DNA of 64,000 nucleotides, taken from assembly GCA_009692265.1 (NCBI GenBank), contig SHZM01000012.1:4273-68272 (forward strand), given 5' to 3'. This DNA comes from Gammaproteobacteria bacterium. Its GTDB lineage: Bacteria; Pseudomonadota; Gammaproteobacteria; Ga0077536. Positions 27,911-60,233 of the stretch are shown here, piece by piece. Numbering within the stretch: position 1 is the first letter of the stretch; every line of letters begins with the position of its first letter. The position numbers and the translations under genes are program-made. Under the pieces are notes generated by a model. The model was not told where the DNA came from. It saw only the letters and a program-made list of their open reading frames with translations, and made no database searches.

Positions 27911-27965
27911 AGCGTGCTCCCTGCAGGCGTAACGATCCGGTATCCATACCGGGCTGCGGCACAGT

Positions 27966-42618: not shown

Positions 42619-43185
42619 CTAGGCTTTCGGGAGAGTTACTCCGGTCTGCGCCTGATACTTCCCGCCGCGATCTCGATAAGAAATGTCGCACGCGCAATCC
42701 GATTCGAGAAAAATCACCTGTGCGACACCTTCGTTAGCATAAATTTTGGCGGGCAAGGTAGTCGTATTTGAAAACTCCAAGGTCACATGGCCTTCCCACT
42801 CCGGTTCGAGCGGCGTCACGTTGACGATAATTCCGCAACGCGCATAGGTCGATTTACCTAAACAAATTGTGAGTACATTGCGCGGGATCCGGAAGTACTC
42901 AACGGTACGCGCTAACGCGAACGAGTTCGGTGGGATTATGCAAACGTCGGCATTTACGTCCACGAAGCTGGCGGGATCAAAATTTTTTGGATCCACGATT
43001 GCTGAGTTGATGTTCGTGAACACCTTGAATTCCGGCGCGCAGCGAATGTCATAGCCGTAGCTTGAGGTACCATAGGAAATAACACGACGGCCCTCAAGTT
43101 CACGCACTTGTTGCGGCTCGAAGGGCTCGATCATGCGAGCCTCGCGTGCCATTCGATTTATCCACGAGTCTGCTTTGACCGGCAT
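42619..43185 (-). CDS. dcd: dCTP deaminase
   Basis: 188 aa with the motifs IEPFEP...SSYGYD...EFSN. Confidence 0.9.
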
Positions 43186-43211
43186 ATTCGGAAGATCCGA
43201 GCTGGGAAGCC

Positions 43212-44303
43212 TTAAGTGCTTTTCTGAATCACGATGTTGGGGAAGCGGCCGCTGTAATCACGGGCGCGCAGGGCAAGCTTGGTCGTAACCCTGCGCGCGA
43301 TCTCGCGGTAGACCTGAGTCGCTACGGAATCTGGGTCTGTCTCGACCGTGGGTCTACCATTATCTACGCCTTCGCGGATGCGTATATCGAGCGGCAGCGA
43401 ACCCAGAAGATCCACATTATGCTGCGCAGCCATTGTGGCACCGCCACCGGCGCCGAAGATGTGCTCGGCGTGTCCGCAGTTGGTGCACACGTGTACACTC
43501 ATATTTTCCACCACACCAAGCACCGGTACGTCGACTTTCTCGAACATCTTAAGCCCCTTGCGTGCATCCATTAACGCGATGTCTTGTGGGGTCGTGACGA
43601 TGATCGCGCCACTTAAGGGAACTTTTTGACACAATGTAAGCTGGATATCGCCAGTGCCAGGTGGGAGATCGATGACTAAATAATCCAAATCACGCCAATT
43701 CGTCTCACGCAGGAGCTGTTCTAGCGCACTCGTGGCCATCGGGCCGCGCCAGATCATTGGCGTATCTTCTTCAATGAGGTGTCCGATCGAAATACACTGG
43801 ATACCGAAGCTCACCTTCGGTTCCATCGACTTTCCATCGCGTGAGTCCGGGCGTCCAGGACAGCCGAGCATGCGTGGCTGACTGGGGCCATAGATGTCGG
43901 CATCTAGGAGGCCGACCGTAGCCCCTTCATCGCGTAACGCTAAGGCCAGATTTACTGCCGTGGTCGACTTTCCAACACCACCTTTGCCCGAGGCAACAGC
44001 GATGGTGTTTTTGACCCCGGGCAACGTTTTGACCCCTTTCTGCACCGAATGCGCGACGATTTTCGTCTCCCATCGGAACGTTAGCGCGGTGCCCGGCGCG
44101 AGCGGTGACAACGCCTTCGCGAGTTCGGCTTCCAACGTCGCGCGATGGCGCGCGAGCGGGAAACCTGCCTCGAGTTCAATGGCGATTTTCTGCTCGTCGG
44201 TAATGATGTTCTTCAGCATACCTGCGCTAACTACGTCGACGCCTAAATAGGGATCACGATAGCTGCGCAGGGATGATTCGATCTGTTCTTTGGTCGCGGT
44301 CAT
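43212..44303 (-). CDS. apbC: Fe-S cluster carrier ATPase ApbC/Mrp
   Basis: 363 aa with the deviant Walker [11 protein letters not shown] and CxxC (CTNCGH). It is divergent from metG, as in E. coli. Confidence 0.9.
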
Positions 44304-44480
44304 GGTGTTGCTCTTAGAAGGGCCTCGGTATTGTACACAATGGGCTCAGCCGCCGAGGATCTCGGCTGAATTGACGGCGGGCATGCGGCGGTGATCCATG
44401 ACACTGGTGCAGGCTGGATGCTAATTTAGCGCGTCGACGGTAACCCGTTGCTGAAATAGCCTTATTAATTCCGAGACCCG

Positions 44481-46511
44481 ATGAACACACTTGCACGCCG
44501 CATGCTCGTTACCAGCGCATTGCCCTACGCGAATGGCCCGATTCATATCGGGCATCTTGTTGAATACATCCAAACCGATATTTGGGTGCGTTTCCAGAAA
44601 ATGCGCGGGCACCAGTGTTACTACGTGTGTGCGGATGATGCGCATGGAACACCGATCATGCTGCGCGCGGAGCAGGAAGGGGTGACCGCCGAACAGCTGA
44701 TCGCACGAATCGGCGCTGAACATCGCGCGGACTTTGCCGGCTTCAGTGTGGGTTTCGATCATTATCATTCGACGCATTCACCGGAAAACCGTGAAATCGC
44801 GACGCTTATCTATGAGCGCTTACGAGACGCCGGACATATCGTGCGCCGGACCATCCGACAAGCCTACGATCCGCTCAAGGCGATGTTTCTCCCGGATCGC
44901 TTTATCCGCGGCACCTGCCCGCGCTGTGGCGCGACCGATCAGTATGGCGATAGCTGTGAAGTGTGCGGTGCGACTTATGCGCCGACCGATCTAATCGATC
45001 CCCGTTCCGCCCTCTCGGGGGTGACTCCAGAACAGCGGGAATCCGAGCACCTGTTTTTTCAGCTCGGGCATTTTGAAGGGATGTTACGAGACTGGATTGT
45101 AACGAGCGAGCTGCAAGCGGGCGCTGTGAACAAACTGAAAGAGTGGTTCGATGCCGGCTTGCAGGATTGGGATATATCGCGCGACGCGCCGTATTTCGGC
45201 TTCGAAATTCCGGACGCACCTGGCAAGTATTTTTATGTCTGGTTGGATGCGCCAATCGGTTATTTCGCGAGCTTTAAGGCCCTTTGCGCACAGCGTGGCC
45301 TGGAATTCGACGCGTTTTGCGGAGTTGAGAGTAGTACCGAGCTCTACCATTTCATCGGTAAAGACATTATGTATTTTCACACGCTGTTTTGGCCGGCCAT
45401 GCTGCACGGTGCCGGGTTTCGTGTGCCAACGAATGTCTTTGTGCATGGCTTTCTTACCGTCGACGGCCAGAAAATGTCGAAATCGCGTGGGACATTTATT
45501 ACCGCTCGAACCTATCTGACCCATCTTGATCCGGAGTATTTACGGTACTACTTCGCCGCCAAATTAGGTCCGGCGATCGACGACATCGATTTAAACCTCG
45601 CCGACTTCCAGGCCAGGGTCAATTCCGATTTGGTCGGAAAGGTCGTGAATATCGCGAGCCGTTGTGCAGGATTCATCACCAAGCACTTTGATGGAAACTT
45701 GAGCGCGCAAAGTGATGAGCCTGAATTGTTGCGACGGTTTCAAAGCGCCGGAGAATCGATTGCGCAAGCCTACGAGGCGCGCGATTACTCGCGTGCGATG
45801 CGTGAAATCATGCAGCTGGCGGATTTGGCGAATCAATACATCGATCTCCGCAAGCCGTGGCTACTTGCGAAGGCGCAGGAGCAAATCACGGTGCTCCATG
45901 CGGTGTGCTCGACCGGCATTGAACTATTTCGTCTGTTGACCATTTATTTGAAACCGGTGCTGCCTGGAATGGCGATAGCGGTGGAAGAATTTCTAGGTTG
46001 TGCTGAATTCACCTGGAGTGCTGCGGCCGAGACCTTGGGTGCGCACCGAATCAAACCTTTTAAACCGCTGAAAACGCGGATAGATCCGGAGAAAGTTGCT
46101 GCGATGATTGAGGATTCCAAAGCGAGCAAAGCGCCAGCAAACCCGCTGCCGCAAGTTCAAGCGAAGGCGAGCGAGCCCGCGATTCCAGAAATATCGATTG
46201 AGGATTTTGCGAAGGTCGATCTTCGTGTGGCGTTGGTAGTCGATGCGCAGCACGTCCCAGGCGCCGAAAAGTTAATCCAACTCAAGCTGGATATCGGCAC
46301 CGAAACACGCACGGTGTTCGCTGGGATCAAATCGACTTATCGTCCGGAAGAGTTGATCGGCAGCCAAGTTGTTCTGGTGGCAAATCTCGCGCCACGAAAA
46401 ATGCGCTTCGGTACTTCCGAGGGCATGATTTTAGTCGCGGGCTCGGGCAACGGTGAACTATTCGTGATTAGTCCACAATCAGGTGCGGCGCCTGGCATGC
46501 GGGTCAAATAG
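44481..46511 (+). CDS. metG: Methionine--tRNA ligase
   Basis: 676 aa with the HIGH variant (PIHIGH), KMSKS, a Zn knuckle (CPRCG...CEVCG) and a C-terminal tRNA-binding domain. Confidence 0.95.
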
Positions 46512-46527
46512 ACAACCAGTGCCTGCG

Positions 46528-47415
46528 ATGCCCAGTGTTTCTGACAGGGAACTCGCGGACAGAATCGGTACCGTGCTGCCACAGACACAGTGTGGACACT
46601 GTGGTTTTGACAGTTGTGCTCCCTTCGCTGAGGCCGTAGCGAAGCGAACGGCACACCCCGAACAGTGTACGCCAGGCGGTGCTCTGGTGGCGCGCCGACT
46701 GCGAGAGATACTTGGCGATACTCTGCAGATTCCCGCTCAAGCTGAACTTATGGCTCCGATCCCGCACCCCGCGATCGCGCGAATATCCGAAGCGGCATGC
46801 ATCGGGTGCACGAAGTGCCTGGAAGTATGCCCGGTCGATGCAATAGTCGGCGCGGCACACCAAATGCACACGGTGCTCGAGCAACATTGCACCGGATGCG
46901 GCCTCTGCCTACCGCCCTGTCCAGTGGACTGCATCGAATTGAGCCCACGGACTGAACTCGCGGGATCTTGGCCGGCCCGGAACTCTGCTGTAGCGCAGGT
47001 GATCACCGCAACTCCCGCACAGCCGTGTACTCGGTGTGAGGCTTGCGTTCCGGTGTGCCCCGAAAGCTTACGTCCTGATCGGCTCTTGCATGCCGCGCTT
47101 GCGCTTGAGGTAGACACGGTCGCCGAGCTCCGGCTTGAAGCGTGTACTGAATGCAACGCCTGCCAGGAAGTATGTCCGAGCCACATACCGCTGACGGCTT
47201 ACTTCATTCATACCAAGCAGATCGTGGCGGCCGCCGAGTCTGTCACTCGCACAGCGAGTGCAGCGGCGCGGCGCTATACGAGCCATCGCGAACGGCAGCA
47301 CCGCGGCACCGAAGATCGGCAGCACGCGAACCTGTTGATGTCGCTTGAATCGTTGAGTAGCGTCGCGGCAAAAGCAGAAATCGCGGCAGCCTTGGCACGT
47401 GCGCGGGAGCGCTAA
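46528..47415 (+). CDS. RnfB/RsxB-like polyferredoxin (soluble, no membrane anchor)
   Basis: It has the RnfB-type N-terminal cluster motif QCGHCGFDSC...CTPGG, two 4Fe-4S motifs (CIGCTKCLEVCP, CTGCGLCLPPCP) and two further CxxCxxCxxxCP motifs. It lies upstream of nth. Confidence 0.7.
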   Translation: MPSVSDRELADRIGTVLPQTQCGHCGFDSCAPFAEAVAKRTAHPEQCTPGGALVARRLREILGDTLQIPAQAELMAPIPHPAIARISEAACIGCTKCLEVCPVDAIVGAAHQMHTVLEQHCTGCGLCLPPCPVDCIELSPRTELAGSWPARNSAVAQVITATPAQPCTRCEACVPVCPESLRPDRLLHAALALEVDTVAELRLEACTECNACQEVCPSHIPLTAYFIHTKQIVAAAESVTRTASAAARRYTSHRERQHRGTEDRQHANLLMSLESLSSVAAKAEIAAALARARER

Positions 47416-47423
47416 CTGATGCC

Positions 47424-48062
47424 ATGAACAAACGCCAGGCAGGTGCTATCTTCAAGCTTCTCGCGGCCTCGGATCCCGCACCCACTACCGAATTGGCATA
47501 TTCCAGTACCTTCGAACTTCTCGTTTCCGTAATCCTCTCCGCGCAAGCGACTGATGTGAGTGTGAACAAAGCCACGCGCGGGCTTTTTTTGATTGCTAAT
47601 ACCCCCGCGAAGATGCTCGACCTGGGGGAACGTGGCCTTAAGCGCCATATCAAAACCATTGGTCTATTCAATGCCAAGGCAAGGCATATTATCGCGACCT
47701 CGCAGCGGCTTTTGGAACACCACGACGGTGAGGTGCCGAACTCCCGAGAGGGGTTGGAGGCACTTCCTGGGGTTGGTCGCAAAACCGCGAACGTCGTGTT
47801 GAATACAGCCTTTGGGGAACCGACTGTCGCCGTCGATACCCACATTTTCCGCGTCGCGAATCGAACCGGTCTCGCACCTGGGAAGACACCGCTGCAAGTC
47901 GAACAAGGTTTATTGGAGATTGTGCCGAGACGGTATTTGCAGCATGCGCACCATTGGTTGATATTGTACGGCAGATACGTGTGCGTCGCGCGGCAGCCGA
48001 AGTGCGGGATCTGTAAGCTTCGAAATCACTGCGAATGGCCGGCTAAGACGCCCGATAACTAA
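47424..48062 (+). CDS. nth: Endonuclease III
   Basis: 212 aa with HhH-GPD (LPGVGRKTANVVL) and the C-terminal Fe-S motif CxxxxxxCxxCxxxxxC. Confidence 0.95.
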   Translation: MNKRQAGAIFKLLAASDPAPTTELAYSSTFELLVSVILSAQATDVSVNKATRGLFLIANTPAKMLDLGERGLKRHIKTIGLFNAKARHIIATSQRLLEHHDGEVPNSREGLEALPGVGRKTANVVLNTAFGEPTVAVDTHIFRVANRTGLAPGKTPLQVEQGLLEIVPRRYLQHAHHWLILYGRYVCVARQPKCGICKLRNHCEWPAKTPDN

Positions 48063-48077
48063 GCTAGCGAGAACACG

Positions 48078-48506
48078 ATGTTTGTAGGTGAACCAGCCGA
48101 ATCGCGACGATATTTCTGGCAAGCCTGGCGCAAACACCAGGCGGGGGCTCGGTTGGAGCCGTTAGAAGTAATCGTGGTTAACGTCATCAGTCAGCATCCG
48201 GAATATCACAGCTTGTTTGCCGGGGATGAGCGTAGCGTGTGCGAGTATGGGGTGGGACTCGTAGCGCAAAATAACCCGTTTTTTCATCTTGGGCTGCATA
48301 TCGCGTTGCATGAGCAGCTGCAGAGCGATCGACCTGCCGGCATCCGCGCGCATTATCAGCGACAAATGATTACCTTGGGCGACAACGTGCATGCGGCTGA
48401 ACATCGCATTATGAAAATCCTGACGGAAGTACTGTTAAGTGCGCAGTCGAAAGGTGAGATGCCCGACGAAGGGGTGTATCTGGCTGAGTTAGCGAGTTTG
48501 GTATAA
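48078..48506 (+). CDS. Conserved hypothetical protein, likely DUF1841 family
   Basis: 142 aa. The family call rests on my memory of the motif pattern (FWQAW...HPEYH...NPFFHLGLH) and its position after nth. It has not been checked by search. Confidence 0.4.
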   Translation: MFVGEPAESRRYFWQAWRKHQAGARLEPLEVIVVNVISQHPEYHSLFAGDERSVCEYGVGLVAQNNPFFHLGLHIALHEQLQSDRPAGIRAHYQRQMITLGDNVHAAEHRIMKILTEVLLSAQSKGEMPDEGVYLAELASLV

Positions 48507-48514
48507 CCGCAGTC

Positions 48515-49780
48515 ATGGACGCGGAATTAACAACCTTGGAGCCCGAACCGCCGATCGACGGCGCGATAGCGAGCTTTCTCGCAACCATCACCTTGGATTT
48601 CGCGAGTTCGCTCGATATAGAAGAAGCCTTGCAGCATGCGATTGACCGGACCATCGGCTATCTTCGCGCTGAAGCCGCGTCCATTTTCCTGCTTGACGAT
48701 GCAAGTCGTACGTTAATTTGTCGCAAATGCGCCGGCCCCGTCGATATTACCGGCTTGCGTTTATCGCCGGACCAGGGAATCGTCGGCATGGCGGTGCAAA
48801 CCAATACGATACAGCTCGTGCGCGATGTACAGGAGAACACTAAATTTGCCGCCACCGTTGACGCTGGTACTGGCTTCGTAACCCGCTCGATTCTCTGTGT
48901 CCCGTTGGCGGTACGGGGGCGTTGCATTGGGGCGCTCGAAGTGATCAACAAGCGCAGCGGTGACGGTCTATTCGCGACCGCGGATATGCATCTTGCTACT
49001 ACGGTAGCCGCCGCCGCCGCGTTGGCTATCCACAATGCGCGTATGGCGCAGGTGATGGTAGAACAGGAGCGCTTACGTAAAGAGCTTGAATTGGCGCGCG
49101 CTATTCAAATGAGTCTGCTGCCCTCGGAAACCAATCTTCCGATCTTTGGCTTGAATCTTCCGGCGCATCAGGTGTCTGGCGATTTCTACGACTATTTCGA
49201 ACTTCCCGACGGTCGCATTTATTTCAGCATCGCCGACGTCGCCGGCAAAGGCATGAATGCGGCATTGTTGATGGCGAAAACCACCAGCTTGTTACGCTGC
49301 CTGGCCAAGGAAATCGCGGATCCCGCCATCCTACTCGCCAAGGTCAATCGGGAAGTCTACGAGACGGCGTCACTGGGGCTGTTCGTGACCATAGTTGCCG
49401 GGTTTTTTGATCCGCTGACTTCCCAGGTACGCTACGCGAACGCCGGGCATCAGCCTCCTGTGCTGTGGCAACCGACCGGGATCCTGGAGAGCCCGAGCGC
49501 GAGCGCACCACCGCTAGGCGTCATGGCAAGTTTGGAGGCGACTACCGAGACCGTGCTGCTCGCCGGCGGTAGTTTTTATTTATTCACCGACGGGGTCACC
49601 GAAGCGTGCAACGCAGCCGACGAAGCATTGGGTCTGGAGGGATTAAGCAGTATCCTAGATCGTGTGAGCAGTATTCCCCGTACGGCGCGCTTACACGCGA
49701 TCGTGGCGGCGCTGGAACACCAACAGCGCGTGTTGCACGATGACCTTACCTTATTGCTGATTGAAACCGATGGCACCTAA
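48515..49780 (+). CDS. GAF domain + PP2C/SpoIIE-type phosphatase (RsbU-like)
   Basis: 421 aa. The GAF region reads SIFLLDD...GIVG...CVPL. The SpoIIE region reads GDFYDYF...IADVAGKGMNAALLM...ANAGH...FTDGVTE. Confidence 0.8.
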   Translation: MDAELTTLEPEPPIDGAIASFLATITLDFASSLDIEEALQHAIDRTIGYLRAEAASIFLLDDASRTLICRKCAGPVDITGLRLSPDQGIVGMAVQTNTIQLVRDVQENTKFAATVDAGTGFVTRSILCVPLAVRGRCIGALEVINKRSGDGLFATADMHLATTVAAAAALAIHNARMAQVMVEQERLRKELELARAIQMSLLPSETNLPIFGLNLPAHQVSGDFYDYFELPDGRIYFSIADVAGKGMNAALLMAKTTSLLRCLAKEIADPAILLAKVNREVYETASLGLFVTIVAGFFDPLTSQVRYANAGHQPPVLWQPTGILESPSASAPPLGVMASLEATTETVLLAGGSFYLFTDGVTEACNAADEALGLEGLSSILDRVSSIPRTARLHAIVAALEHQQRVLHDDLTLLLIETDGT

Positions 49781-50189
49781 GAAGGCCCTGCTAGCACTGC
49801 GCTTTCCGGCCGACCCGCGACGTTTACGGAACGTCCGTGAACGGGTACAAGTGGTAGCCGAACATCTCGGCTGCAGCAAAAAACACGTGACCGATCTGGT
49901 ACTAGCGGTAAACGAAGCTTGTATGAATATTATTCAACACGCGTATAAGGGCGACAAATCCGGGCAGATAGAGCTTGAGGTGCGCCGGGATGGGGGGCAA
50001 ATTCACGTGGTTTTAACGGACTTCGCGGCGCCGGTGGAATTCCGCAAAATCCGACCGCGCGCGCTGCACGAATTGCGGCCTGGGGGGTTGGGTACTTATT
50101 TCATGCAGGCAAGCGTTGACGAATGCAGCTACGGTCACTTGGACGGTAAATCCGGGAATTTCGTGCGTATGATTAAGAACATTAACTAG
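49761..50189 (+). CDS. RsbW/SpoIIAB-like anti-sigma-type Ser kinase (HATPase_c_2)
   Basis: N-box NEACMNIIQHAY and G-box GGLGTYFM are present. The start is TTG at 49761 or ATG at 49770, and either overlaps the end of the phosphatase gene. Confidence 0.7.
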   Translation: MKPMAPKKALLALRFPADPRRLRNVRERVQVVAEHLGCSKKHVTDLVLAVNEACMNIIQHAYKGDKSGQIELEVRRDGGQIHVVLTDFAAPVEFRKIRPRALHELRPGGLGTYFMQASVDECSYGHLDGKSGNFVRMIKNIN

Positions 50190-50197
50190 GCAGCACC

Positions 50198-50530
50198 ATG
50201 GCGTATCAAGTTAAAAAAGACAGCGGTTTTTCGGTTGTCCATCTCACTGGCGATATCGATTTATCGTGCTCGCCGGAGGCACGCAAATCCATCCTCGATA
50301 GTTTGGCAGCGGCTCAGCCCACGTTGGTGGATCTCTCCGCTGTTACCTATATCGACAGCTCTGGCGTCGCAAGTCTTGTCGAAGGCTATCAAACCGCAAA
50401 GAAAAAGAACCTTGAGTTCGGTCTCCTCGGCGTCAGTGAAGCGGCCCTGAGTGTGCTTGAACTCGCCCGCCTTGATCGGGTTTTCCCGATTTATGCCTCG
50501 CTTAAGGACCGTCTAGCCAAGAATGGCTGA
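50198..50530 (+). CDS. STAS-domain protein (anti-sigma-factor-antagonist / MlaB-like)
   Basis: 110 aa. The motif YIDSSGVASLVE includes the DSSG phospho-Ser position of the SpoIIAA/RsbV family. Confidence 0.8.
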   Translation: MAYQVKKDSGFSVVHLTGDIDLSCSPEARKSILDSLAAAQPTLVDLSAVTYIDSSGVASLVEGYQTAKKKNLEFGLLGVSEAALSVLELARLDRVFPIYASLKDRLAKNG

Positions 50531-51335
50531 AACCAGTTTCGGCTCTGTGCGAGGACGACTGGTACAGCTCGGACGCGCTGCAACAGCGGTAATTGAAGAA
50601 TACGGCTATTGGGTTACGCTCCTCGGAGAAAGTCTCTATTGGATCGTCGTTGGGCCGTTCAAGCGGCGACCAGTGCGCTTGTCGGCAACCGTCGCGCAGA
50701 TGGTCAGCATTGGAATCGCCGCGGTGCCTATTGTTTTTATGTTGTCTTTTGCCATCGGCGTGATGTTGGCGATCCAGGGAATCTATACGTTGCGGCAGTT
50801 TGGCGCCGAAACCCAAGTGGTTTTGGGCATTGCACTGTCCGTGGTACGCGAGTTCGGCCCGCTAATAACCGGAATCCTCGTGGCGGGCCGAACAGGCTCA
50901 GCGCTGGCCGCGCGGATTGGAACGATGCAGGCGAACCAGGAGATTGACGCGTTGCGGGTGATGGGGATCGACCCGGTACGTTTTCTGGCCGCGCCAGTAT
51001 TCATTGCGACGTTGGTTATGGTGCCAGCTCTCACCTTATTCTCGGATCTCGCCGCGATGTTTGGTGGGGCAGTGTACTGTCAACTCGAACTCGGCTTAAA
51101 TCATGTGGCTTATTGGGATCAGGCGACTTCTTTTATTGTGATCAACGATGTTACGCAGGGCTTGATTAAGAGTCTGGTGTTCGCGGTGATTGTGGCGTTG
51201 GTCGGAATCAGTAATGGTTTCGCCGTGACGGGCGGAGCCGAGGGTGTCGGTCGGGCCACCACGCGCGCCGTGGTGGCGTCGATCTCCTATATCGTATTGG
51301 CCGATATGCTCTTTACGTATTTTCTGAATCGATGA
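50523..51335 (+). CDS. mlaE: MlaE-family ABC transporter permease
   Basis: 270 aa with GPLITGILVAGRTGSALAARIGTMQANQEIDAL. Its start overlaps the STAS stop (ATGGCTGA). Confidence 0.85.
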   Translation: MAETSFGSVRGRLVQLGRAATAVIEEYGYWVTLLGESLYWIVVGPFKRRPVRLSATVAQMVSIGIAAVPIVFMLSFAIGVMLAIQGIYTLRQFGAETQVVLGIALSVVREFGPLITGILVAGRTGSALAARIGTMQANQEIDALRVMGIDPVRFLAAPVFIATLVMVPALTLFSDLAAMFGGAVYCQLELGLNHVAYWDQATSFIVINDVTQGLIKSLVFAVIVALVGISNGFAVTGGAEGVGRATTRAVVASISYIVLADMLFTYFLNR

Positions 51336-52126
51336 GCGCTAACCATTATGCGATCGAGGTCGAAGATCTGGTTGCCTACTATGGCTCGCGCCGGATCCTG
51401 GACGGGGTCTCGCTCCAAGTTGGCTACGGCGAAATCATGGTCATCATGGGCGGTAGTGGATCAGGCAAGAGTACGTTATTGCGGCATTTATTAGCGCTGC
51501 AAACCCCGCGCAGCGGCAGTATTCGAATCCTAGGACGTGATATCACCACGGCTAGCGCGGATATGCTGCACGAGCTACGCCAGAGTATTGGGGTCTCATT
51601 CCAGGGCGGCGCGCTACTGAGCTCGCTGACCATCGGCGAAAACGTCGCACTCCCGTTACGCGAGCACACCCGCCTGGATGACAGCATCATTGAGATCACG
51701 GCGCGATTAAAACTCGAAATCGTCAGCCTCGGCGGCTTCGAGCACCTGTACCCCGCGCAGTTGTCGGGCGGAATGATCAAACGTGCGGCTCTGGCACGCG
51801 CCATGGCGATGGATCCCAAGATGCTTTTTTTTGATGAGCCGTCGGCCGGACTGGATCCCGTGGTGTCGTCCGAACTCGATGACCTGATCATAAAGCTTCG
51901 CGATACCTTGGGTGTGACGATCGTCGTGGTCACCCATGAACTTGAGAGCGCGTTTAAAATTGCAGATCACATCACTGTATTAGATCATGGGCGAATCCTG
52001 ATCTCGGGGACTGCAGACATCGTGCGCAATTCATCCATAGAGCGGGTACAAGATCTGCTCCACCGTCGGTCGCGCCCGATCGAGATCTCGGCCGACGATT
52101 ACCTTCACCGACTCACCGGCGGATAA
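51332..52126 (+). CDS. mlaF: MlaF-family ABC transporter ATP-binding protein
   Basis: Walker A GGSGSGKST, signature LSGGMIKR and Walker B LFFDEP are present. It overlaps mlaE by 4 nt. Confidence 0.85.
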   Translation: MSANHYAIEVEDLVAYYGSRRILDGVSLQVGYGEIMVIMGGSGSGKSTLLRHLLALQTPRSGSIRILGRDITTASADMLHELRQSIGVSFQGGALLSSLTIGENVALPLREHTRLDDSIIEITARLKLEIVSLGGFEHLYPAQLSGGMIKRAALARAMAMDPKMLFFDEPSAGLDPVVSSELDDLIIKLRDTLGVTIVVVTHELESAFKIADHITVLDHGRILISGTADIVRNSSIERVQDLLHRRSRPIEISADDYLHRLTGG

Positions 52127-52139
52127 TCGAGACCTCAGA

Positions 52140-53150
52140 GTGAAGCGCGATACCGTTAATTACCTCGTCGTTGGTTTGTTCGTCACCGCCATTCTGGCGG
52201 CTTTTTTTATCATGATGGTCTTCATCACAGGCCGCGCGGGACCGAGTGACCATTATTTCGCCCGCTACGAAAACGTCACTGGGATCAAATTCGGGACGGG
52301 AGTGTTTTACGAAGGCTATCGTGTGGGGCAGGTTGAATCGGTAGAACCGGTTCCAGCGCCCAACGGTATGCGTTATAAGGTCTCGATGACGGTCGCAAAG
52401 GATTGGCGAATCCCGGCGGATAGTCACGCCGAAGTCATTACGGCCGGCCTTATTTCGCAGGTACAGATAGAAATCCGCGAAGGTATCAGCACCGAACTGC
52501 TAATACCGGGTTCCGAAATTACCGGTGTCCAACAAGTCGATTTATTCTCGGCCTTGAGCGAAGCCGCGTCCGGTTTTAACGATCTCTCGGCAACCGGCGT
52601 GACGCCGGTGTTACGGAATCTGAATAAGCGCATTTCGCAAGTTGCCGACCAAATTATGGAATTTCGGCGCGACGAGTTATCCCCGCTAATCGCGACCTTA
52701 AATCATCGGATCGACGACGAATTAGCGCCGCAAGCCTTGACGGTATTGCGGCGATTGGACGCTAGCAGTGCGCGCTTAGACCAGTTTCTGGGTCCAGACA
52801 ACGAAGCAAAAGTAGGACAATTTCTCGATAACATTAACAGCGTCGCTGTAAACCTAAATGAATTAGTCGAACGACTGGAGACTACCCGTGCGCGCATGGA
52901 TGGGGTTCTAGTGCATCTGGATGGGGTGATATTGAACAATGAAGGCGATATTACCGACACGGTTAAAGGTGCGCGCCGGTCGTTAGCACAGATGGAAACA
53001 GCATTAACCACCGTGAATGAACGCATTGAATCGGTGATGTACAACCTCGATGGCAGCGCGCGCCAAATGCATGAACTGACGCGCGCTCTACGTGAGAATC
53101 CCACCCGTATCTTGCGAACACCCGCAACCTCGTCGGACAACACGCCATGA
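52140..53150 (+). CDS. mlaD: MCE-domain (MlaD-like) protein with a long helical C-terminal extension
   Basis: 336 aa with a GTG start. It has an N-terminal TM helix, one MCE domain and about 200 aa of predicted coiled-coil. Confidence 0.75.
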   Translation: MKRDTVNYLVVGLFVTAILAAFFIMMVFITGRAGPSDHYFARYENVTGIKFGTGVFYEGYRVGQVESVEPVPAPNGMRYKVSMTVAKDWRIPADSHAEVITAGLISQVQIEIREGISTELLIPGSEITGVQQVDLFSALSEAASGFNDLSATGVTPVLRNLNKRISQVADQIMEFRRDELSPLIATLNHRIDDELAPQALTVLRRLDASSARLDQFLGPDNEAKVGQFLDNINSVAVNLNELVERLETTRARMDGVLVHLDGVILNNEGDITDTVKGARRSLAQMETALTTVNERIESVMYNLDGSARQMHELTRALRENPTRILRTPATSSDNTP

Positions 53151-53758
53151 AGGCGGCGCTTGGGCTTGTGCTACTCAGTACGCTCGCTGGATGTGGCTCG
53201 GTTGAGCCGCTGCCGGAAGAAGTTTTTCTTCGCCTCAACCTGCCCACGTCCAACGGCGCGTCCGCGGCACCGCGATGGACGAGCGGCGAATTGCGGGTCG
53301 CGCCGGTCAAAGCCAGTGGACTTTATCGTGAACGAGCGCTGGCCTTTTCTAAAGACGGCGGCACGTCGCTGCAGCTTCATCGGTACCTGTTGTGGCTCGA
53401 TACGCCCTCAGAAATGGTGCAACAAACGTTAGTGGAGTTCTTGCAGGCGCGCGGGGTGGCCCCGCAGGTGGTTACCACGCAGTCTCCGGCGACTGCGCTT
53501 GAGTTGGCCGCTACAGTGACTAAATATGAACAGCTGATCGCGGGCCAGGCGAGCGTAATGCAAGCCGAAATTGCGTTCCAGCTTCGCGAGCCGGGGGGCG
53601 AAAGTTTATTTGTAAAAGCCTATCGCGCCGAAGAGGTCAGCCCCGACGACTCTCCGGCAACGTTGGCAACGGTGATGGCCCGAGTGATTGCAAACGTTTA
53701 TTCGCAGTTTGCTAATGATGCGACTGTCGTTCTTCAACCGGCCGTGGCGAGAGAGTAA
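53147..53758 (+). CDS. ABC-type transport auxiliary lipoprotein (DUF330 / PqiC-YmbA-like)
   Basis: 203 aa with the lipobox LSTLAGC. It overlaps the MCE gene by 4 nt. Confidence 0.65.
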   Translation: MKAALGLVLLSTLAGCGSVEPLPEEVFLRLNLPTSNGASAAPRWTSGELRVAPVKASGLYRERALAFSKDGGTSLQLHRYLLWLDTPSEMVQQTLVEFLQARGVAPQVVTTQSPATALELAATVTKYEQLIAGQASVMQAEIAFQLREPGGESLFVKAYRAEEVSPDDSPATLATVMARVIANVYSQFANDATVVLQPAVARE

Positions 53759-53764
53759 ACCTTG

Positions 53765-56017
53765 ATGGCTGAGTTAATCGTTCGGATAAAAGAACAAGGT
53801 ATCCGCATCGCGCTGTGCCTTGCCGTGCTGGCGCTATTCGTTTTCCACGCGACAAATTGGCTGCGATTGGCACTCGTCGACCAATTAGAGTTTATTGCCT
53901 ATGACAATCGCTTAACGTTGACGATGCCGAAGACGATCGAGCCCAGAATCGTTATCGTCGATATCGATGAAAAAAGCCTGACGGCTGAGGGACGCTGGCC
54001 CTGGGGACGTGACAAGCTAGCAGTGCTGATTGAGCGCATGTTCAACGATTACAAGGTGGGGCTGGTTGGTTTTGACATCGTCTTCGCGGAGCCCGATACA
54101 AGCTCTGGTCTGAACGTACTCGAGGGGTTGGCGCAGTCCGAGTTCAAAGACAATCAGATCTTTCACAACCGGTTAGCTGTGATGCGTCCGCGCCTGGACT
54201 ATGACCAGGTGTTTGCGGATACGATAAAAAAATTCCCTGTAGTGTTGGGGTACTACTTCAATTTTGCGACCACTGCGGACGATGCGGAGATCGCGAAGAT
54301 TGGCGCACTTCCCGCGCCGACCTTTGTGAAAGGAACTTTCACCGGAAAACATATCGCGTTTCGACCGGCGCAGGGCTACGGCGCGAACCTTGAAAAACTC
54401 CAGCAGGCAGCAGTCTTAGGCGGGCATTTTAATCCGACTCCGGATGCCGACGGGGTGATTCGGCGGGTACCAATGCTCATAGAGCATGAGGGCGCGTACT
54501 ACGCCTCGCTTGCGTTAGAAATGGCGCGTCTTGCGTTGGCAGCTGAAGCGATACTGCCCCGGTATGAACCTCCTCTGTTCGGCGGGAGTGGCTATCCCGG
54601 GCTCGAATGGCTACAGGTCGGGCCGAGCGCCGTTCCGGTCGATCGGCATGTGCAGACCCTGATCCCTTATCGTGGACGGTGTGGCAGTTTTCCCTATGTC
54701 TCGGCGACCGATGTCTTGAACGGTACCGTCGATAAACAAGTCATGGACGGCGCGATCGTCCTGGTTGGTACTACCGCGCCCGGGTTGCTAGATCTGCGTT
54801 CGACCCCGGTTGATGAGGTATATCCAGGAGTCGAGGTACACGCCAACTTGGTAGCCGGAATATTGAGCGGCGAGCTCAAGCAGTTACCGGAATACACCTT
54901 AGGTGCCGAGGTGCTGCTGCTGCTCCTGTTCGGATTAGTGATGGCCATAGTTGCGCCGATTTTGAGCCCCCTGTTTGCGACTCTGCTCGCGGGCGGGCTG
55001 ATCCTCGCTTACATTGGTTTAAATCTTATAGTGTGGACCTTGGCGGATTTTGTTTTGCCCGTCGCTTCCGGAGTTCTCATGCTCGTCGCGATGTTCGTTC
55101 TGAACATGTCCTATGGCTATTTCATCGAGACCCGAGGCAAGCAAAAAATCACAGGCTTATTTGGCCACTACGTACCGCCGTCGCTGGTCGACGAAATGGC
55201 TAAACGTCCAGAAGCCTATTCGCTGGAAGCCGAAAGCCGTGAGATGAGTGTGCTGTTTTCGGATATTCGCGATTTCACGAGCATTTCCGAAAAGCTGAAA
55301 CCGAAAGAATTATCGGCTTTGATGAACCAGTTCCTCACACCCATGACCCAGGCGATCCACAACCACCGGGGCACCATCGATAAATACATGGGCGATGCGA
55401 TCATGGCGTTTTGGGGAGCGCCACTCGACGATGACGCGCATACCTTGCACGCGGTTCAAGCGGGGCTTGAGATGCTGGCTCGGGTGAAGGAGCTCAATAA
55501 GGTCTTCGTCGCGAAGGGTTGGCCCGAAATCCGCATCGGAATTGGGGTGAATAGTGGCTCGATGAGCGTCGGCAATATGGGCTCCGAGTTCAGGGTTGCC
55601 TATACCGCGCTGGGTGACGCGGTAAACTTGGGTTCTCGCATTGAGAGCTTGACCAAGGGCTATGGGGTGGCAATGCTGGTCAGCGAGTCGACGAAGGAAG
55701 CGGTCCCGGAATATGCCTATCGCGAAATCGACCGCGTTCGCGTGAAGGGCAAGGAGCAGCCTATTTCGATCTATGAGCCGCTATTTCTAAAATCCGAATT
55801 GGACGAGAAATGGCGTAGCGAATTGAAGTTGCATCGGGAAGCGGTGCGCCTGTATCGCGCCCAGGACTGGGATGCGGCGGAAATGAATTTTTTAAGCCTG
55901 CAACGCAGTTCGCGCGCGCCAGGCTTGTATAAGATTTACGTGGATCGCGTCGCCCAGTTTCGACGCTCGCCCCCGCCCAGGAATTGGGACGGCGTTTACA
56001 CGCATTCGATCAAGTAG
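53765..56017 (+). CDS. CHASE2 sensor domain + class III adenylate/guanylate cyclase
   Basis: About 750 aa. The N-terminal CHASE2 region reads IVIVDIDEKSL..GRWPWGRD. TM helices follow, then a cyclase domain reading VLFSDIRDFTS...GDAIMAFWGAP...GxNxG. It starts 4-7 nt after the lipoprotein stop. Confidence 0.85.
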   Translation: MAELIVRIKEQGIRIALCLAVLALFVFHATNWLRLALVDQLEFIAYDNRLTLTMPKTIEPRIVIVDIDEKSLTAEGRWPWGRDKLAVLIERMFNDYKVGLVGFDIVFAEPDTSSGLNVLEGLAQSEFKDNQIFHNRLAVMRPRLDYDQVFADTIKKFPVVLGYYFNFATTADDAEIAKIGALPAPTFVKGTFTGKHIAFRPAQGYGANLEKLQQAAVLGGHFNPTPDADGVIRRVPMLIEHEGAYYASLALEMARLALAAEAILPRYEPPLFGGSGYPGLEWLQVGPSAVPVDRHVQTLIPYRGRCGSFPYVSATDVLNGTVDKQVMDGAIVLVGTTAPGLLDLRSTPVDEVYPGVEVHANLVAGILSGELKQLPEYTLGAEVLLLLLFGLVMAIVAPILSPLFATLLAGGLILAYIGLNLIVWTLADFVLPVASGVLMLVAMFVLNMSYGYFIETRGKQKITGLFGHYVPPSLVDEMAKRPEAYSLEAESREMSVLFSDIRDFTSISEKLKPKELSALMNQFLTPMTQAIHNHRGTIDKYMGDAIMAFWGAPLDDDAHTLHAVQAGLEMLARVKELNKVFVAKGWPEIRIGIGVNSGSMSVGNMGSEFRVAYTALGDAVNLGSRIESLTKGYGVAMLVSESTKEAVPEYAYREIDRVRVKGKEQPISIYEPLFLKSELDEKWRSELKLHREAVRLYRAQDWDAAEMNFLSLQRSSRAPGLYKIYVDRVAQFRRSPPPRNWDGVYTHSIK

Positions 56018-56083
56018 GCTGAGTTTGGGCCGCTTCGGAATTCACCTGACGAGCAGCACTCTGCGAGAGAGGCAGCCCTAGGC

Positions 56084-56830
56084 CTAACGCGTTAAAGTGA
56101 ATGACATCTTGATGCCAGCTAACTCGATTACATCGCCACTTTTCATCGCGTAAGCCTGTCCGCCAATCGTGGTACCGTTAACGACGGGATAATTATTGTT
56201 CTTCCCGTCCCCTTCGATATGCGTTAGGAAATACCCTTTGGGTCGACGCGAAATTACCGCGACTTGGACGCCGGGTTTTCCTAGCGTGATCAGCGCTTTG
56301 CCGAGTTCGAGTTCTTTGCCCGCAATCGGACCATTCAACACCTGCAGTTTCCCTAGCGGCATCCCGCCAGGAACTGCCGCGGGTGACGGGGCAGATACCG
56401 CCGCTGCTGGACGCGGCGCGGCGGCCTGGGCAGCTGCCGCGGCACCAGCTTCTTCGGCGGCCTTTGCCGCAGCCACTGCGGCACTCGCGGAGCCGGGTCG
56501 AATAATCATCGTCTTTTCGAATTCTTCGTCGTCGGCAGTCGCATGCTCGTTGACGTATTTGAGTTCGTGCTTGCCGATACCGACTACGTCGCCATCCCGT
56601 AAAGCGTGCTTTTTAATGAGTTTGCCGTTGACGTAGGTACCGTTGGTGCTGCCCAGGTCTTCTAGAAAGGAGTCGTCCAGGATCGTGATGACCAGCGCGT
56701 GCTTGCCGCTAACTGCAAGGTTGTCGACCTGAACGTCGTTATCGGGTTTGCGCCCAATCGTCATACGTTCCTTGTTCAGTTGGAATTCCCCCTGAACTGC
56801 ACCATTCAAGCTGAGTACGAGTTTGCCCAT
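56084..56830 (-). CDS. Dual FHA-domain protein with an Ala/Pro-rich linker
   Basis: The ATG is at 56830. The N-terminal FHA domain is canonical (TIGR...SGKHA...DLGSTNGTYVNG). The C-terminal FHA-like domain is divergent. Confidence 0.8.
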   Translation of the reverse strand: MGKLVLSLNGAVQGEFQLNKERMTIGRKPDNDVQVDNLAVSGKHALVITILDDSFLEDLGSTNGTYVNGKLIKKHALRDGDVVGIGKHELKYVNEHATADDEEFEKTMIIRPGSASAAVAAAKAAEEAGAAAAAQAAAPRPAAAVSAPSPAAVPGGMPLGKLQVLNGPIAGKELELGKALITLGKPGVQVAVISRRPKGYFLTHIEGDGKNNNYPVVNGTTIGGQAYAMKSGDVIELAGIKMSFTLTR

Positions 56831-56844
56831 CTTCTTGCGTCCTA

Positions 56845-57678
56845 TCAGCTGTCTCGCGACCAAAGACCTTGTAGTTTCTCGAGAATTCCCGCGCTTGACG
56901 CGGTTACCGCATGCGGTCGGGCAAGCACCACTGAGATGTTGTCCCTACCCCCACTCGCGTTGGCTTGCTGCACCAATTCATGAGCGGCCTGTACAAGATT
57001 ACCACCGTATTTACTTAGGGTTAAGCGAATTTCCTCATCATCTACCATATCATTGAGGCCGTCCGAGCAGAGCAGATAGATATCCCCGGGCCGGGTCGCC
57101 ATTTCGGTCATTTCGACCTCAACGTGCTCGTCAATGCCGAGGGCGCGAGTCACAAGATTTTTTGGCGTATTCGCTTGTGCCTCTTCAGGGGTAAAAAAGC
57201 CTCGATCGATCAATTCCTGTACTAGAGAGTGGTCATTGGTGACCTGCTTCAAGGCATTGTCGCGAAATAAGTAAATACGGGAATCGCCGACGTGAGCCAG
57301 GGTCACCCGGCCTTCAGAAAACAGGGTGGCGACGATCGTTGTTCCCATGCCCTGGCATTGTGGGATGTTATGCGCGGTGCGATAGATGTACTTGTTCGCG
57401 TCTTCGATGCTGCGCCGAATGAGGTCCCTTTCGCGGGTCGCCTCGTTCGGCTTATTTTGCTGTTGGAAAAAATGTTTGTTTTGTCCCGCGCGGACCGCGT
57501 CTAAGACAACTTTCGCCGCGATCGCACTGGCGACCTCTCCCGCTTTATAACCGCCCATGCCATCGGCAACCAACGCCAGCCCCAATTCACGATCAGTGAC
57601 CGCGCTGTCTTCATTGTGCGGTCGTTTTCTACCCGGATCCGAGACATTGACGAGTTCGACATCCGGGACCGCAATCAT
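56845..57678 (-). CDS. PP2C-family Ser/Thr protein phosphatase
   Basis: RPHNEDS, ADGMGG, CSDGL and DNISV motifs are present. The ATG at 57678 shares one base with the kinase stop (TGATG). Confidence 0.85.
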   Translation of the reverse strand: MIAVPDVELVNVSDPGRKRPHNEDSAVTDRELGLALVADGMGGYKAGEVASAIAAKVVLDAVRAGQNKHFFQQQNKPNEATRERDLIRRSIEDANKYIYRTAHNIPQCQGMGTTIVATLFSEGRVTLAHVGDSRIYLFRDNALKQVTNDHSLVQELIDRGFFTPEEAQANTPKNLVTRALGIDEHVEVEMTEMATRPGDIYLLCSDGLNDMVDDEEIRLTLSKYGGNLVQAAHELVQQANASGGRDNISVVLARPHAVTASSAGILEKLQGLWSRDS

Positions 57679-60233
57679 CAGCCCTTGTCCCCAACTTGTT
57701 TGGCACAAGCCTGGATGTCGCGGGCCATATCTGCTCCCGTTTGGTAGCGCTTATCCGCGTCTTTCTGTAGCGCCTTATCGATGATCTCTGGGATACAGGG
57801 TCGCTGCCGCGCCAAATCGGGTTTAAACGTGGCGATATCTTGATGCGGTTCGTTAGCGATCTTGTACATCAAGGTTGCCATCGACTCGCCCATGAACGGT
57901 AGCTTGCCGGTTACCATTTGGTAGAGCATGACACCCAGTGAAAACAGGTCGGAGCGTCCGTCCACTTTTTTACCTGACAATTGCTCGGGCGACATGTATG
58001 ACGGCGTACCGAGCACCATTCCCGTTTTGGTTTTGCTGGAATCGGTGATCCGGGCAATCCCGAAGTCCGTCAACTTGACCGTCTTTTTATTCGGCTCGTA
58101 CATGATATTTGCCGGCTTAATATCGCGATGGACGACATTTTGTTTGTGCGCAAAGTCAAGCGCTAGCGCAGCTTTGAAGATCACGCCCATAGTGATCGGA
58201 AGCGGCAGCAGGGAATCCGGCTTGGTGTAGCGCGCAAGGTCGTGGCCTTCGAGGAACTCCATCGCGATATACGCCAAATCGTGTTCTTCGCCAGCGTCAT
58301 AAATCGTTACGATATTGGGATGCTGAAGGCGACCGGCTGTTTCCGCCTCGCGGAAAAAACGGCTTTTCACTTCATCGAGTTCGTCGGCTTCGAATTCCTG
58401 CGACAACGCCATCGTTTTTATGGCCACGACCCGGTTAATCTTCGGATCCTTGCCGAGATACACCACCCCCATGGCACCTTTGCCGAGCTCCCTCTCAACT
58501 TCATAGCGCCCGAGCATAGTCTTGGTGCCACCTGCTCCGGTCTGGAGGATAGTCGTGCGCGCCGCGCCGCCAGGCGGCGAGCCGCTGGGGTACAGCATCA
58601 AGGTGTCCATGGCTTGTTTGGCCTGGGTGATCTTGTTTTGAATATCCCTGAACTTCGGGTTTTTGTCGTAAATGTACTCGTAAACGAGCATCGCTTTTTC
58701 GGGTTTGCGTTTAACCTGGAAGTCGGTGGCCAGGGAATACATTGACTCCAGTAAGTTGTCGTCGGCCGGGCACTTTCGGAAGTACTCGAATGCGTTATCC
58801 AATTCGCCCTTCTGTTGAAATTGCAGCGCGAGTTGTTTGTTACTGGCGGCTGAATCGACGTCCAGGCGCAATTTGCTCGCTTCCGTGACAAGGAAACGTT
58901 TAGTCGTCAGAAGTACGTGTCCGATCGCGAGCAGACTTACCGCCGTCATTAATTTCAGCCACGTGGCCTGTGACTTCATCAAGCCCAGTTCAATGACGAT
59001 TAAAGCCACGAAAATAGCGCCGCTGATCAAAAAGGCCCGACCCGCTTTCAAGCGTGGCAGGAGAAATATCAGATAGGCTCCCACCAGCAACAGCACCAGG
59101 AATTCGGCGATTCCCGCCCAGCCCGGCTGCACGAAAAAGTTCTGATTCAGAATACTCGCGACGGTATGCGCGAGGACTAAGGCCGGCCCGCCTACGTCAC
59201 CCGTTGGCGTGTGCAAGGTTGAGCCAACGCCGTAGGCCGTGGCCCCGAGCAGCACAATTTTGTCCTTGAAACTTTCCGCCGGGACTTTGTCTTGAATAAC
59301 ATCTATAAACGAGAACACGTCGAACGGTTCGCGATCACCTTCGCGCTTACCGTAATAGAACGTGTTCATGAACAGTTCCGGATTAGTCTTGATATTGAGA
59401 TTTTTGAGTTGAACGCTATCTCCCAAATTGATTTTGATCTCGTCCACGCCAACGTTGAGACTCTTGGCGGCGATCATGAGTGATAACGACGGGAAGTAAT
59501 CATCGTAATAGCGCACGATGAGGGGCTCGAATCGAATATCGCCGTCCACGTCAGGCCACACGATGAGATGCCCAATGGCCGCGGCATTTTCACCAAAGGC
59601 CGGGATCGGTGGCGCTATATTGACCGTCGAGCGCGGGATGAGGTCTTGATTCTGACCGCTTGGGTCAAGAATATTCTGTTTGGGAATCGCGAAGCGCTTG
59701 ATGTAATCGGGGAGCGGCGCGTCCGGATTGCCTATTGGTTCGCCGTCTTCAAGGTGCATCGGCAGGACCACATTACCGCCGTCCTTGATGGTCGTGCCCA
59801 GGATGCCGTCGGTATCCAGCGCCTGCTCGGCAGCTTTTAAAGTTGCGGCAATCTCTTCGCCACCCGGGCTTGAAGCTACCGTCGTCAGTTGGGATTTAAG
59901 ACGCTGAATCCAGGTCAAGCCAGGGTCAACCTGCACTTCCGCATAGAAAATGGTCGACCCGATAACTTTAGCGCCTGCTGCTTTAAGTTTATCGAGCATT
60001 TGCGCGTGGATTTCGCGCGACCATGGCCAGCGCCCGATGCTTTTAATACTGCTGTCATCGATCGCAATCACAGCGATTTGATTACCTGGGTCGCGTGACG
60101 AAAGTCGCACGCCTAAGTCATACGCATCACGTTCAAGTCCTTCGAGAAATTGAAGGCGTCCCCAGATGACTAGAAAGATCAGGGTTAGGGCGATACCTAG
60201 GAAGCGGTCAGATTTCCAGAAGGCCTCTTTCAT
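57678..60233 (-). CDS. CHASE2 sensor domain + TM region + C-terminal Hanks-type Ser/Thr protein kinase
   Basis: 851 aa. The CHASE2 region reads IAVIAIDDSSIKSIGRWPWSRE. The kinase motifs are GKGAMGVVY, AIK, HRDIKPANI, DFGIAR and GTPSYMSPE. Confidence 0.85.
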   Translation of the reverse strand: MKEAFWKSDRFLGIALTLIFLVIWGRLQFLEGLERDAYDLGVRLSSRDPGNQIAVIAIDDSSIKSIGRWPWSREIHAQMLDKLKAAGAKVIGSTIFYAEVQVDPGLTWIQRLKSQLTTVASSPGGEEIAATLKAAEQALDTDGILGTTIKDGGNVVLPMHLEDGEPIGNPDAPLPDYIKRFAIPKQNILDPSGQNQDLIPRSTVNIAPPIPAFGENAAAIGHLIVWPDVDGDIRFEPLIVRYYDDYFPSLSLMIAAKSLNVGVDEIKINLGDSVQLKNLNIKTNPELFMNTFYYGKREGDREPFDVFSFIDVIQDKVPAESFKDKIVLLGATAYGVGSTLHTPTGDVGGPALVLAHTVASILNQNFFVQPGWAGIAEFLVLLLVGAYLIFLLPRLKAGRAFLISGAIFVALIVIELGLMKSQATWLKLMTAVSLLAIGHVLLTTKRFLVTEASKLRLDVDSAASNKQLALQFQQKGELDNAFEYFRKCPADDNLLESMYSLATDFQVKRKPEKAMLVYEYIYDKNPKFRDIQNKITQAKQAMDTLMLYPSGSPPGGAARTTILQTGAGGTKTMLGRYEVERELGKGAMGVVYLGKDPKINRVVAIKTMALSQEFEADELDEVKSRFFREAETAGRLQHPNIVTIYDAGEEHDLAYIAMEFLEGHDLARYTKPDSLLPLPITMGVIFKAALALDFAHKQNVVHRDIKPANIMYEPNKKTVKLTDFGIARITDSSKTKTGMVLGTPSYMSPEQLSGKKVDGRSDLFSLGVMLYQMVTGKLPFMGESMATLMYKIANEPHQDIATFKPDLARQRPCIPEIIDKALQKDADKRYQTGADMARDIQACAKQVGDKG

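Follow-up and report, generated by a model that had tools for sequence, protein, structure and literature searches.

Partner-switching genes conserved together with an Mpc-type MCE transporter: a possible phospho-switch for envelope lipid transport

What does a bacterial partner switch act on when no sigma factor is encoded near it? The question is raised by a 64,000-nucleotide (nt) stretch of the gammaproteobacterial contig SHZM01000012.1 (assembly GCA_009692265.1), hereafter the window, in which seven plus-strand open reading frames (ORFs) at 48515-53758 encode, in this order, a phosphatase, a kinase, a STAS protein, an MlaE-type permease, an MlaF-like ATPase, an MCE protein and a lipoprotein. 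An original prediction, made from the sequence alone, held that the output of the switch formed by the first three products is the transporter formed by the last four. Following the locus through related genomes and metagenomes, we find that the seven genes recur as a conserved block, and whether the phospho-switch module among them acts on the Mpc-type, envelope-spanning lipid transporter appears to us evenly balanced. The new element is the joining of a partner switch to an Mpc-type MCE transporter; both parts are separately known. The block and its downstream neighbour comprise the following features.

48515-49780, plus strand: GAF-PP2C sensor phosphatase, 421 amino acids (aa); Pfam GAF, E-value 1e-13, and SpoIIE/PP2C, E-value 2e-41
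49761/49770-50189, plus strand: RsbW-like GHKL serine kinase, 139-142 aa; Pfam HATPase_c_2, E-value 2.5e-30
50198-50530, plus strand: single-domain STAS protein, 110 aa; Pfam STAS, E-value 1e-18, and TIGR00377
50523-50530, plus strand: overlap of the STAS stop and the mlaE start, ATGGCTGA, 8 nt
50523-51335, plus strand: MlaE-family ATP-binding cassette (ABC) permease, 270 aa; Pfam MlaE, E-value 2e-71
51332-52126, plus strand: MlaF-like ABC ATPase, 264 aa; Pfam ABC_tran
52140-53150, plus strand: MCE protein, 336 aa, with one Pfam MlaD/MCE domain and a long, predicted helical tail
53147-53758, plus strand: PqiC-like outer-membrane lipoprotein, 203 aa; ABC_trans_aux (PF03886), E-value 5.6e-10, LAGC lipobox
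53762/53765-56017, plus strand: CHASE2 and class III nucleotide cyclase; Pfam CHASE2 and Guanylate_cyc

The coordinates, order and overlaps of the seven genes given in the original prediction were borne out by ORF calls, Pfam, NCBIfam and a reading of the junctions, and profile searches with Pfam and NCBIfam upheld every one of its domain calls. To assess conservation, GTDB species were scanned with one genome each, and at least 585 of them carry a relative of the STAS protein. The six-frame ORFs of the 80 best-matching loci (59-86% identity) were searched with the window proteins, and 79 of these loci were informative downstream of STAS. These 80 loci come nearly all from metagenome-assembled genomes, mostly labelled Gammaproteobacteria, and the carriers include Thiohalobacter, Thiogranum, Candidatus Thiodiazotropha, Candidatus Endoriftia, Acidiferrobacteraceae and the betaproteobacterial Propionivibrio. 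The kinase gene is present in every one of the 74 loci that have at least 2 kb upstream, and the phosphatase gene in 73 of the 74. MlaE follows STAS in 62 of the 79 informative genome loci, and the full set of four transporter genes is found in 52 of the 53 that extend far enough. A second scan, of metagenome contigs, was seeded with a STAS protein about 45% identical to that of the window; 80 contigs were taken from it, and they gave 61 informative triad-bearing loci, 58 of which have MlaE or MlaF right after STAS. The placement of the triad 5' of mlaE, which the original prediction had put up for checking across genomes, is thus recovered in both sets, and the triad is followed by the transporter in 120 of 140 informative loci taken together.

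The STAS/mlaE junction is overlapping in 48 of 62 loci, with a predicted spacing of -8 nt in 32 of the 62; the kinase/STAS gap, with a median of +22 nt, is looser. The flanks of the block vary by clade (nth-DUF1841 before it and the cyclase after it; an AsmA gene upstream; relA/spoT downstream) and its inner order is constant. Throughout a large clade, the input domain of the phosphatase is HDOD instead of GAF, and the rest of the seven-gene block is unchanged (for example in loci L031, L037 and L053). Because order, the STAS/mlaE overlap, and the catalytic and DSSG motifs are kept through these changes of context, we regard the seven genes, with high confidence, as a conserved functional unit.

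Several related loci show arrangements of their own. An HDOD domain, a PP2C domain and a kinase domain lie in a single polypeptide of 709-713 aa in L067 (2181-4307) and its sister L071. An AsmA-family gene stands directly upstream of the triad-transporter block in L058 (5775-8000) and L073, and the window itself carries, on the minus strand at 1466-5236, a full-length YhdP, an AsmA-like lipid bridge. In loci L105, L108, L116, L121, L125 and L137, the MlaE that comes after the triad is more divergent and the match to MCE is weak; in three of these (L108, L125 and L137) the opposite strand carries, about 2 kb beyond, an MlaF gene that matches strongly. Orphan STAS genes of the metagenome scan, which lie beside ispDF and EamA genes with neither kinase nor transporter, belong to a different group and were set aside as uninformative.

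By sequence and fold the first three products are a canonical RsbV/RsbW/RsbU-type triad: a STAS protein, a GHKL kinase and a PP2C phosphatase with an input domain are present, and a co-encoded sigma factor is not. In the phosphatase, a GAF domain at about residues 33-173 precedes a PP2C/SpoIIE domain at 231-418, and 76-77 of 77 family members share its metal-binding residues (D223, D226, D241, G244, D359, G360, D409 and D410). The motif N145-K146-x6-F153-x3-D157 of the GAF domain (window 48947-48985) is invariant in all 56 GAF-type members and matches four of the five positions of the NKFDE signature of cyclic-nucleotide-binding GAF domains; given the adjoining nucleotide cyclase, a cyclic nucleoside monophosphate (cNMP) is a candidate signal for the phosphatase. 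The kinase has Bacillus subtilis RsbW (6m36, E-value 4e-14) as its best solved relative. Its N-box E52, N56 and H60, its G1 Asp D87 and its G2 motif P-G-G-L-G (residues 107-111) are kept in 78-79 of 79 members, and its G1 box reads D-F-A-x-P instead of DxGxG. The STAS protein scores 73 bits against the NCBIfam anti-sigma-factor antagonist model TIGR00377 (cut-off 53), and the top folds matched by its AlphaFold2 model (predicted local distance difference test score, pLDDT, 86) are RsbV, SpoIIAA and TM1442, with template-modelling (TM) scores of 0.80-0.85. The phosphorylatable serine of a DSSG motif, which the original prediction had placed in this protein, is present: D53-S54-S55-G56 (nt 50354-50365) is invariant in all 81 STAS members, with Ser54 (codon 50357-50359) as the predicted phospho-site.

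No sigma-factor family was found by Pfam among the 40 other ORFs of the window, and phmmer searches with Escherichia coli RpoS, FliA and RpoE gave zero matches there. The same phmmer searches over the 1.29 Mb of the 80 related loci (within 10 kb) found no sigma-70-family gene, the one match being at chance level (E-value 0.0018, a DUF4124-like ORF). The absence of a sigma target, claimed at the outset for the window, therefore extends to these loci as well.

Judged by sequence, the four genes of the transporter fall outside the canonical Mla system, because the NCBIfam cut-offs of the E. coli-type equivalogs are all missed (MlaE, 180 bits against a cut-off of 315; MlaF, 203 against 441; MlaD, 65 against 135; MlaB, 28 against 90) and MlaC was not found in the operon. 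The broader MlaE-family model TIGR00056 is the sole Mla-type model passed among these (236 bits, cut-off 212). The proposed lack of an MlaC-type shuttle holds at the locus, where Pfam and NCBIfam gave no match to the MlaC family among the seven genes or their neighbours. The permease has no fused STAS domain and is 37-39% identical to alphaproteobacterial STAS-MlaE fusion permeases. The ATPase is closest in the PDB to MlaF of Pseudomonas aeruginosa, Acinetobacter baumannii and E. coli, and has the LSGGM signature found in Mla/TGD ATPases. In its C-terminal tail (residues 254-262, A-D-x-Y-L-x-R-L-T), Y257, R260 and L261 are invariant in 58 members, T262 is near-invariant (57/58) and the residue before the Y257-side motif is D or E; the Tyr/Leu spacing (Y-x3-L) fits the 'handshake' helix of E. 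coli MlaF (Y261, L265 and L266), which docks in the groove between MlaF and MlaB.

The MCE protein has an N-terminal transmembrane helix, an MlaD domain at residues 37-115 and a predicted helical tail of about 185 residues, and its alignment with the Mce-family model TIGR00996 spans residues 10-289. Its single-sequence AlphaFold2 model, which is of low confidence (pLDDT 51) and was taken for secondary structure only, has a beta-rich domain followed by helices at 135-319, in line with the long helical MCE protein that had been predicted. The lipoprotein carries the lipobox L-A-G-C16; a sequence search of the PDB gave zero matches for it, and its family profile aligns with E. coli PqiC by hhalign over 135 columns (92.8%, E-value 4e-7), which agrees with the PqiC-like assignment first made. 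By its E-F-D-lipoprotein order and its PqiC-like last gene, the transporter is of the Mpc type (Mla-Pqi chimeric). The bridge or tunnel architecture put forward in the original prediction is plausible on the modelled helices of the MCE protein; it is not new, having already been described for Brucella Mpc.

If the switch acts on this transporter, the E. coli system suggests how. There, the helical subdomain of MlaF is the binding site of MlaB, and both the entry of MlaF into the complex and ATPase activity depend on MlaB (PMC5016091, PMC7367683); a phosphomimetic substitution, T52E, weakens MlaF binding (Kolich 2020, PMC7367683), and MlaB T52A abolishes ATPase activity. Two papers raise the phosphorylation of this MlaB residue as a hypothesis for which a kinase has yet to be named (Thong 2016, PMC5016091; Kolich 2020, PMC7367683). 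An alignment of our STAS family to MlaB, covering columns 40-86, pairs S54 with T52. We propose that unphosphorylated STAS would dock on the MlaF-like ATPase, as MlaB or the fused STAS of MpcE may do, and that docking would permit assembly of the complex or ATPase activity. The RsbW-like kinase would phosphorylate Ser54, predicted to lie at the centre of the STAS-MlaF interface, and so detach STAS; the GAF PP2C phosphatase (HDOD in other clades), with its ligand present, would dephosphorylate STAS and turn transport back on. In the clade of the window, a cyclic nucleotide produced by the adjoining CHASE2 cyclase may serve as the signal, read by the GAF domain with its N-K-F-D motif. That STAS binds MlaF, which way the regulation runs, and what the signal and the substrate are, we infer, and we give the mechanism about an even chance. 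That an ABC/MCE lipid transporter is gated by reversible serine phosphorylation of a STAS subunit, through a dedicated kinase and a ligand-sensing phosphatase, we advance tentatively, as a claim that falls just short of being probable. In the literature searched, of which coverage was incomplete, no published kinase or phosphatase linked to an Mla/MCE STAS protein was found.

Comparison with known systems places the locus between two groups that have been described separately. Like E. coli MlaFEDB, it encodes MlaE, an MlaF with LSGGM and a C-terminal Tyr/Leu tail, and an MCE subunit (PMC5016091, PMC7367683), together with a small cytoplasmic STAS protein in the operon that has an equivalent Ser/Thr (S54 here, T52 in MlaB). 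The two differ in that no dedicated kinase or phosphatase exists in E. coli whereas both are encoded here, in that MlaB is a minimal 97-aa STAS protein at the end of its operon whereas a full 110-aa RsbV-type STAS precedes mlaE here, and in that the MlaC shuttle and MlaA of E. coli are replaced by a predicted long MCE needle and a PqiC-like lipoprotein. The closer likeness is to Brucella abortus MpcEFDA, which by its published description has a permease, an ATPase, an MCE protein and, last, a PqiC-like lipoprotein (PMC12436622); MpcD has 331 aa with a predicted needle, against 336 aa for the MCE protein here, and neither system has an MlaC (PMC12436622). Operons of Azospirillum (L081) and Methylocella (L082) are look-alikes of Brucella Mpc, with the same E-F-D-lipoprotein order in L081. 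In MpcE and in the Azospirillum and Methylocella operons, STAS is fused N-terminally to MlaE, whereas here a separate STAS gene occupies the same slot; and none of those operons has a kinase or phosphatase nearby, whereas here both precede STAS.

On the side of the switch, the RsbU-RsbV-RsbW-sigmaB and SpoIIE-SpoIIAA-SpoIIAB-sigmaF systems of B. subtilis share the PP2C phosphatase, the GHKL kinase and the DSSG STAS protein, and supply the best sequence and fold matches of the triad proteins in the PDB; unlike them, the present operon runs into a membrane transporter, with no sigma gene in the operon, the window or the related loci. Partner switches with non-sigma targets include SypE-SypA of Vibrio fischeri, HsbR-HsbA of P. 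aeruginosa, BtrU/W/V of Bordetella and HenR-All4160 of Anabaena (for the last, 10.64898/2026.04.08.717354). In these, as is proposed here, the switch probably works through the STAS protein and not through the kinase, and phosphorylation inactivates the STAS protein, but they act on polysaccharide enzymes, a diguanylate cyclase, FlgM or type III secretion, and a non-sigma partner switch acting on an ABC/MCE transporter was not reported in the literature searched. SLC26/SulP proteins likewise use STAS as a cytoplasmic regulatory module of a membrane transporter, although there the transporter belongs to another family and the STAS domain is fused, without a cognate kinase or phosphatase.

Relatives of the window STAS that are 47-53% identical sit C-terminally on MFS/TLC-like membrane proteins. 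Examples are P0139, P0208 and P0237, membrane proteins of about 840 aa with weak MFS/TLC matches, in which the C-terminal STAS includes the LDKVFPIYAS tail. An apparent STAS-MlaE fusion, P0169, whose STAS is 58% identical to that of the window, was rejected as an assembly artefact with frameshifted stretches on both sides.

A number of results weigh against control of the transporter by STAS. The sequence matches of STAS in the PDB are anti-sigma antagonists throughout, E. coli MlaB ranks only 44th among its fold matches (TM score 0.64), and its score on the NCBIfam MlaB model is 28 bits where the cut-off is 90; by sequence and fold, it is an RsbV/SpoIIAA-type antagonist and not an MlaB orthologue. 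Neither BLASTP nor hhalign detected similarity between the window STAS and the fused STAS domains of the Azospirillum and Methylocella MlaE proteins, so that the argument for a split fusion is one of gene position only. The argument from the MlaF tail is weak, because a C-terminal extension of MlaF is also present in a system without MlaB. Nor is close spacing peculiar to the seven genes. The phosphatase and kinase genes overlap by 11 nt (kinase ATG at 49770) or 20 nt (TTG at 49761, the start given by the ORF tool), 8 nt lie between the kinase stop and the STAS start, ATGA is common to the MlaE end and MlaF start and likewise to the MCE/lipoprotein junction, and 13 nt separate the MlaF and MCE genes; yet the tight plus-strand run is wider, extending over 44481-56017 with gaps of at most 15 nt, with metG, an rnfB-like gene, nth and a DUF1841 gene as its upstream members and the CHASE2 cyclase, whose start is 3-6 nt past the lipoprotein stop, downstream. 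The cyclase may belong to the transcription unit as an eighth gene. A scan of 43000-57500 for promoters and terminators gave no signal above shuffled expectation and so sets no boundaries for the operon. Since the packing extends to the neighbours and such signals were absent, spacing is weak evidence for a dedicated seven-gene unit: the overlaps on which the original prediction of translational coupling was built are real, but housekeeping genes are spaced as tightly.

The most direct counter-evidence comes from triads that stand without the transporter. In 20 of the 140 loci (17 of 79 genome loci and 3 of 61 metagenome loci) a full triad has no adjacent transporter, and the genome loci among them are spread over at least eight separate lineages in a tree built from the triad proteins. 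No remnants of mla genes were found in the spacers of these loci, so loss rather than gain of the transporter is read from the triad tree only. In them, STAS is followed by the CHASE2 cyclase or by convergent FHA/PP2C/Ser-Thr-kinase genes, and several also lack the cyclase. The motifs of all three triad proteins are unaltered there, and a search for STAS positions conserved solely in transporter-bearing loci found none. Because the triad survives with its motifs intact, either the transporter is encoded elsewhere in those genomes or the triad has, or can have, another partner. Gene context thus speaks for the transporter as the output of the switch, as originally predicted, and the RsbV-type character of STAS and the 20 transporter-less triads speak against it.

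What other partner could this be? In a conventional switch with an unlinked target, the kinase would sequester a sigma factor or another regulator encoded elsewhere, and the transporter would be a member of the regulon or downstream cargo. The canonical RsbV/RsbW/RsbU-type sequence and fold of the three proteins would suit such a switch, as would the 20 of 140 loci in which an intact triad stands alone, with no transporter beside it, and other Gram-negative switches, HsbR-HsbA and RpoS-linked systems among them, have unlinked targets. We nevertheless consider this unlikely, although a serious contender, because no sigma factor lies within 10 kb in the 80 genome loci or in the window, STAS overlaps mlaE and not the kinase gene in most loci, the block stays together through changes of context and swaps of sensor, and this transporter family is known to include STAS subunits. 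A dual output, in which STAS acts on the transporter in the loci that have one and the module controls a second, unlinked partner besides, would fit the linkage in 120 of 140 loci together with the recurrence of transporter-less triads of unchanged conservation, and branched partner switches are known in Pseudomonas (PMC6482189). The second partner is hypothetical, however, and transporter-less genomes could simply carry the transporter elsewhere, so we rate this as improbable.

Another nearby output would make the transporter a bystander, the candidates being the CHASE2 cyclase and the convergent set of FHA, PP2C and CHASE2 Ser-Thr kinase genes. The cyclase begins within 3-6 nt of the block and comes directly after STAS in 10 transporter-less loci, and STAS proteins that regulate nucleotide cyclases exist in other bacteria (HsbA-HsbD). 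Yet it adjoins the block in only 32 of 79 genome loci, all of a single clade; the HDOD clade and nearly all metagenome loci have the triad and the transporter but no cyclase, and several loci lack both cyclase and transporter. We therefore attach very little probability to this explanation. The reading in which STAS acts on the Mpc-type transporter is the one that we carry forward, at the even balance given at the outset.

Elsewhere in the window, the CHASE2 cyclase (53762-56017, plus strand) faces the convergent FHA, PP2C and CHASE2-Ser/Thr kinase set (56084-60233, minus strand), which places two CHASE2 sensors back to back at 53762-60233. A plus-strand gene at 32151-33191 encodes two cyclic-nucleotide-binding domains and a rhodanese domain, and is a possible further cNMP reader. 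On the minus strand at 26355-28063, a ComM/YifB-like Mg-chelatase gene appears as two overlapping ORFs (27164-28063 and 26355-27233), which suggests a frameshift or a sequencing error. An OmpR-type response regulator at 41034-41558 (minus strand) covers no more of the receiver domain than its C-terminal half, with residues 1-57 aligned to profile positions 55-110; either this ORF is N-terminally truncated or its start lies upstream of a stop codon or frameshift.

The locus bears on how MCE/Mla transporters are switched on and off. Well over a hundred genomes and contigs carry the triad directly ahead of the permease gene, and the operon makes the hypothesis of MlaB phosphoregulation directly testable. 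Should control of the transporter be refuted, the family would be an orphan partner switch with a target yet to be sought, widespread among Gamma- and Betaproteobacteria, sulfur oxidisers among them. Should it prove true, the operon would supply the kinase and the phosphatase that the MlaB phosphoregulation hypothesis has been missing, and a membrane transporter would join the short list of non-sigma partner-switch outputs. Partner switching would then extend from gene expression to the direct control of lipid trafficking in the envelope, and envelope lipid homeostasis would be tied to small-molecule sensing through GAF or HDOD domains.

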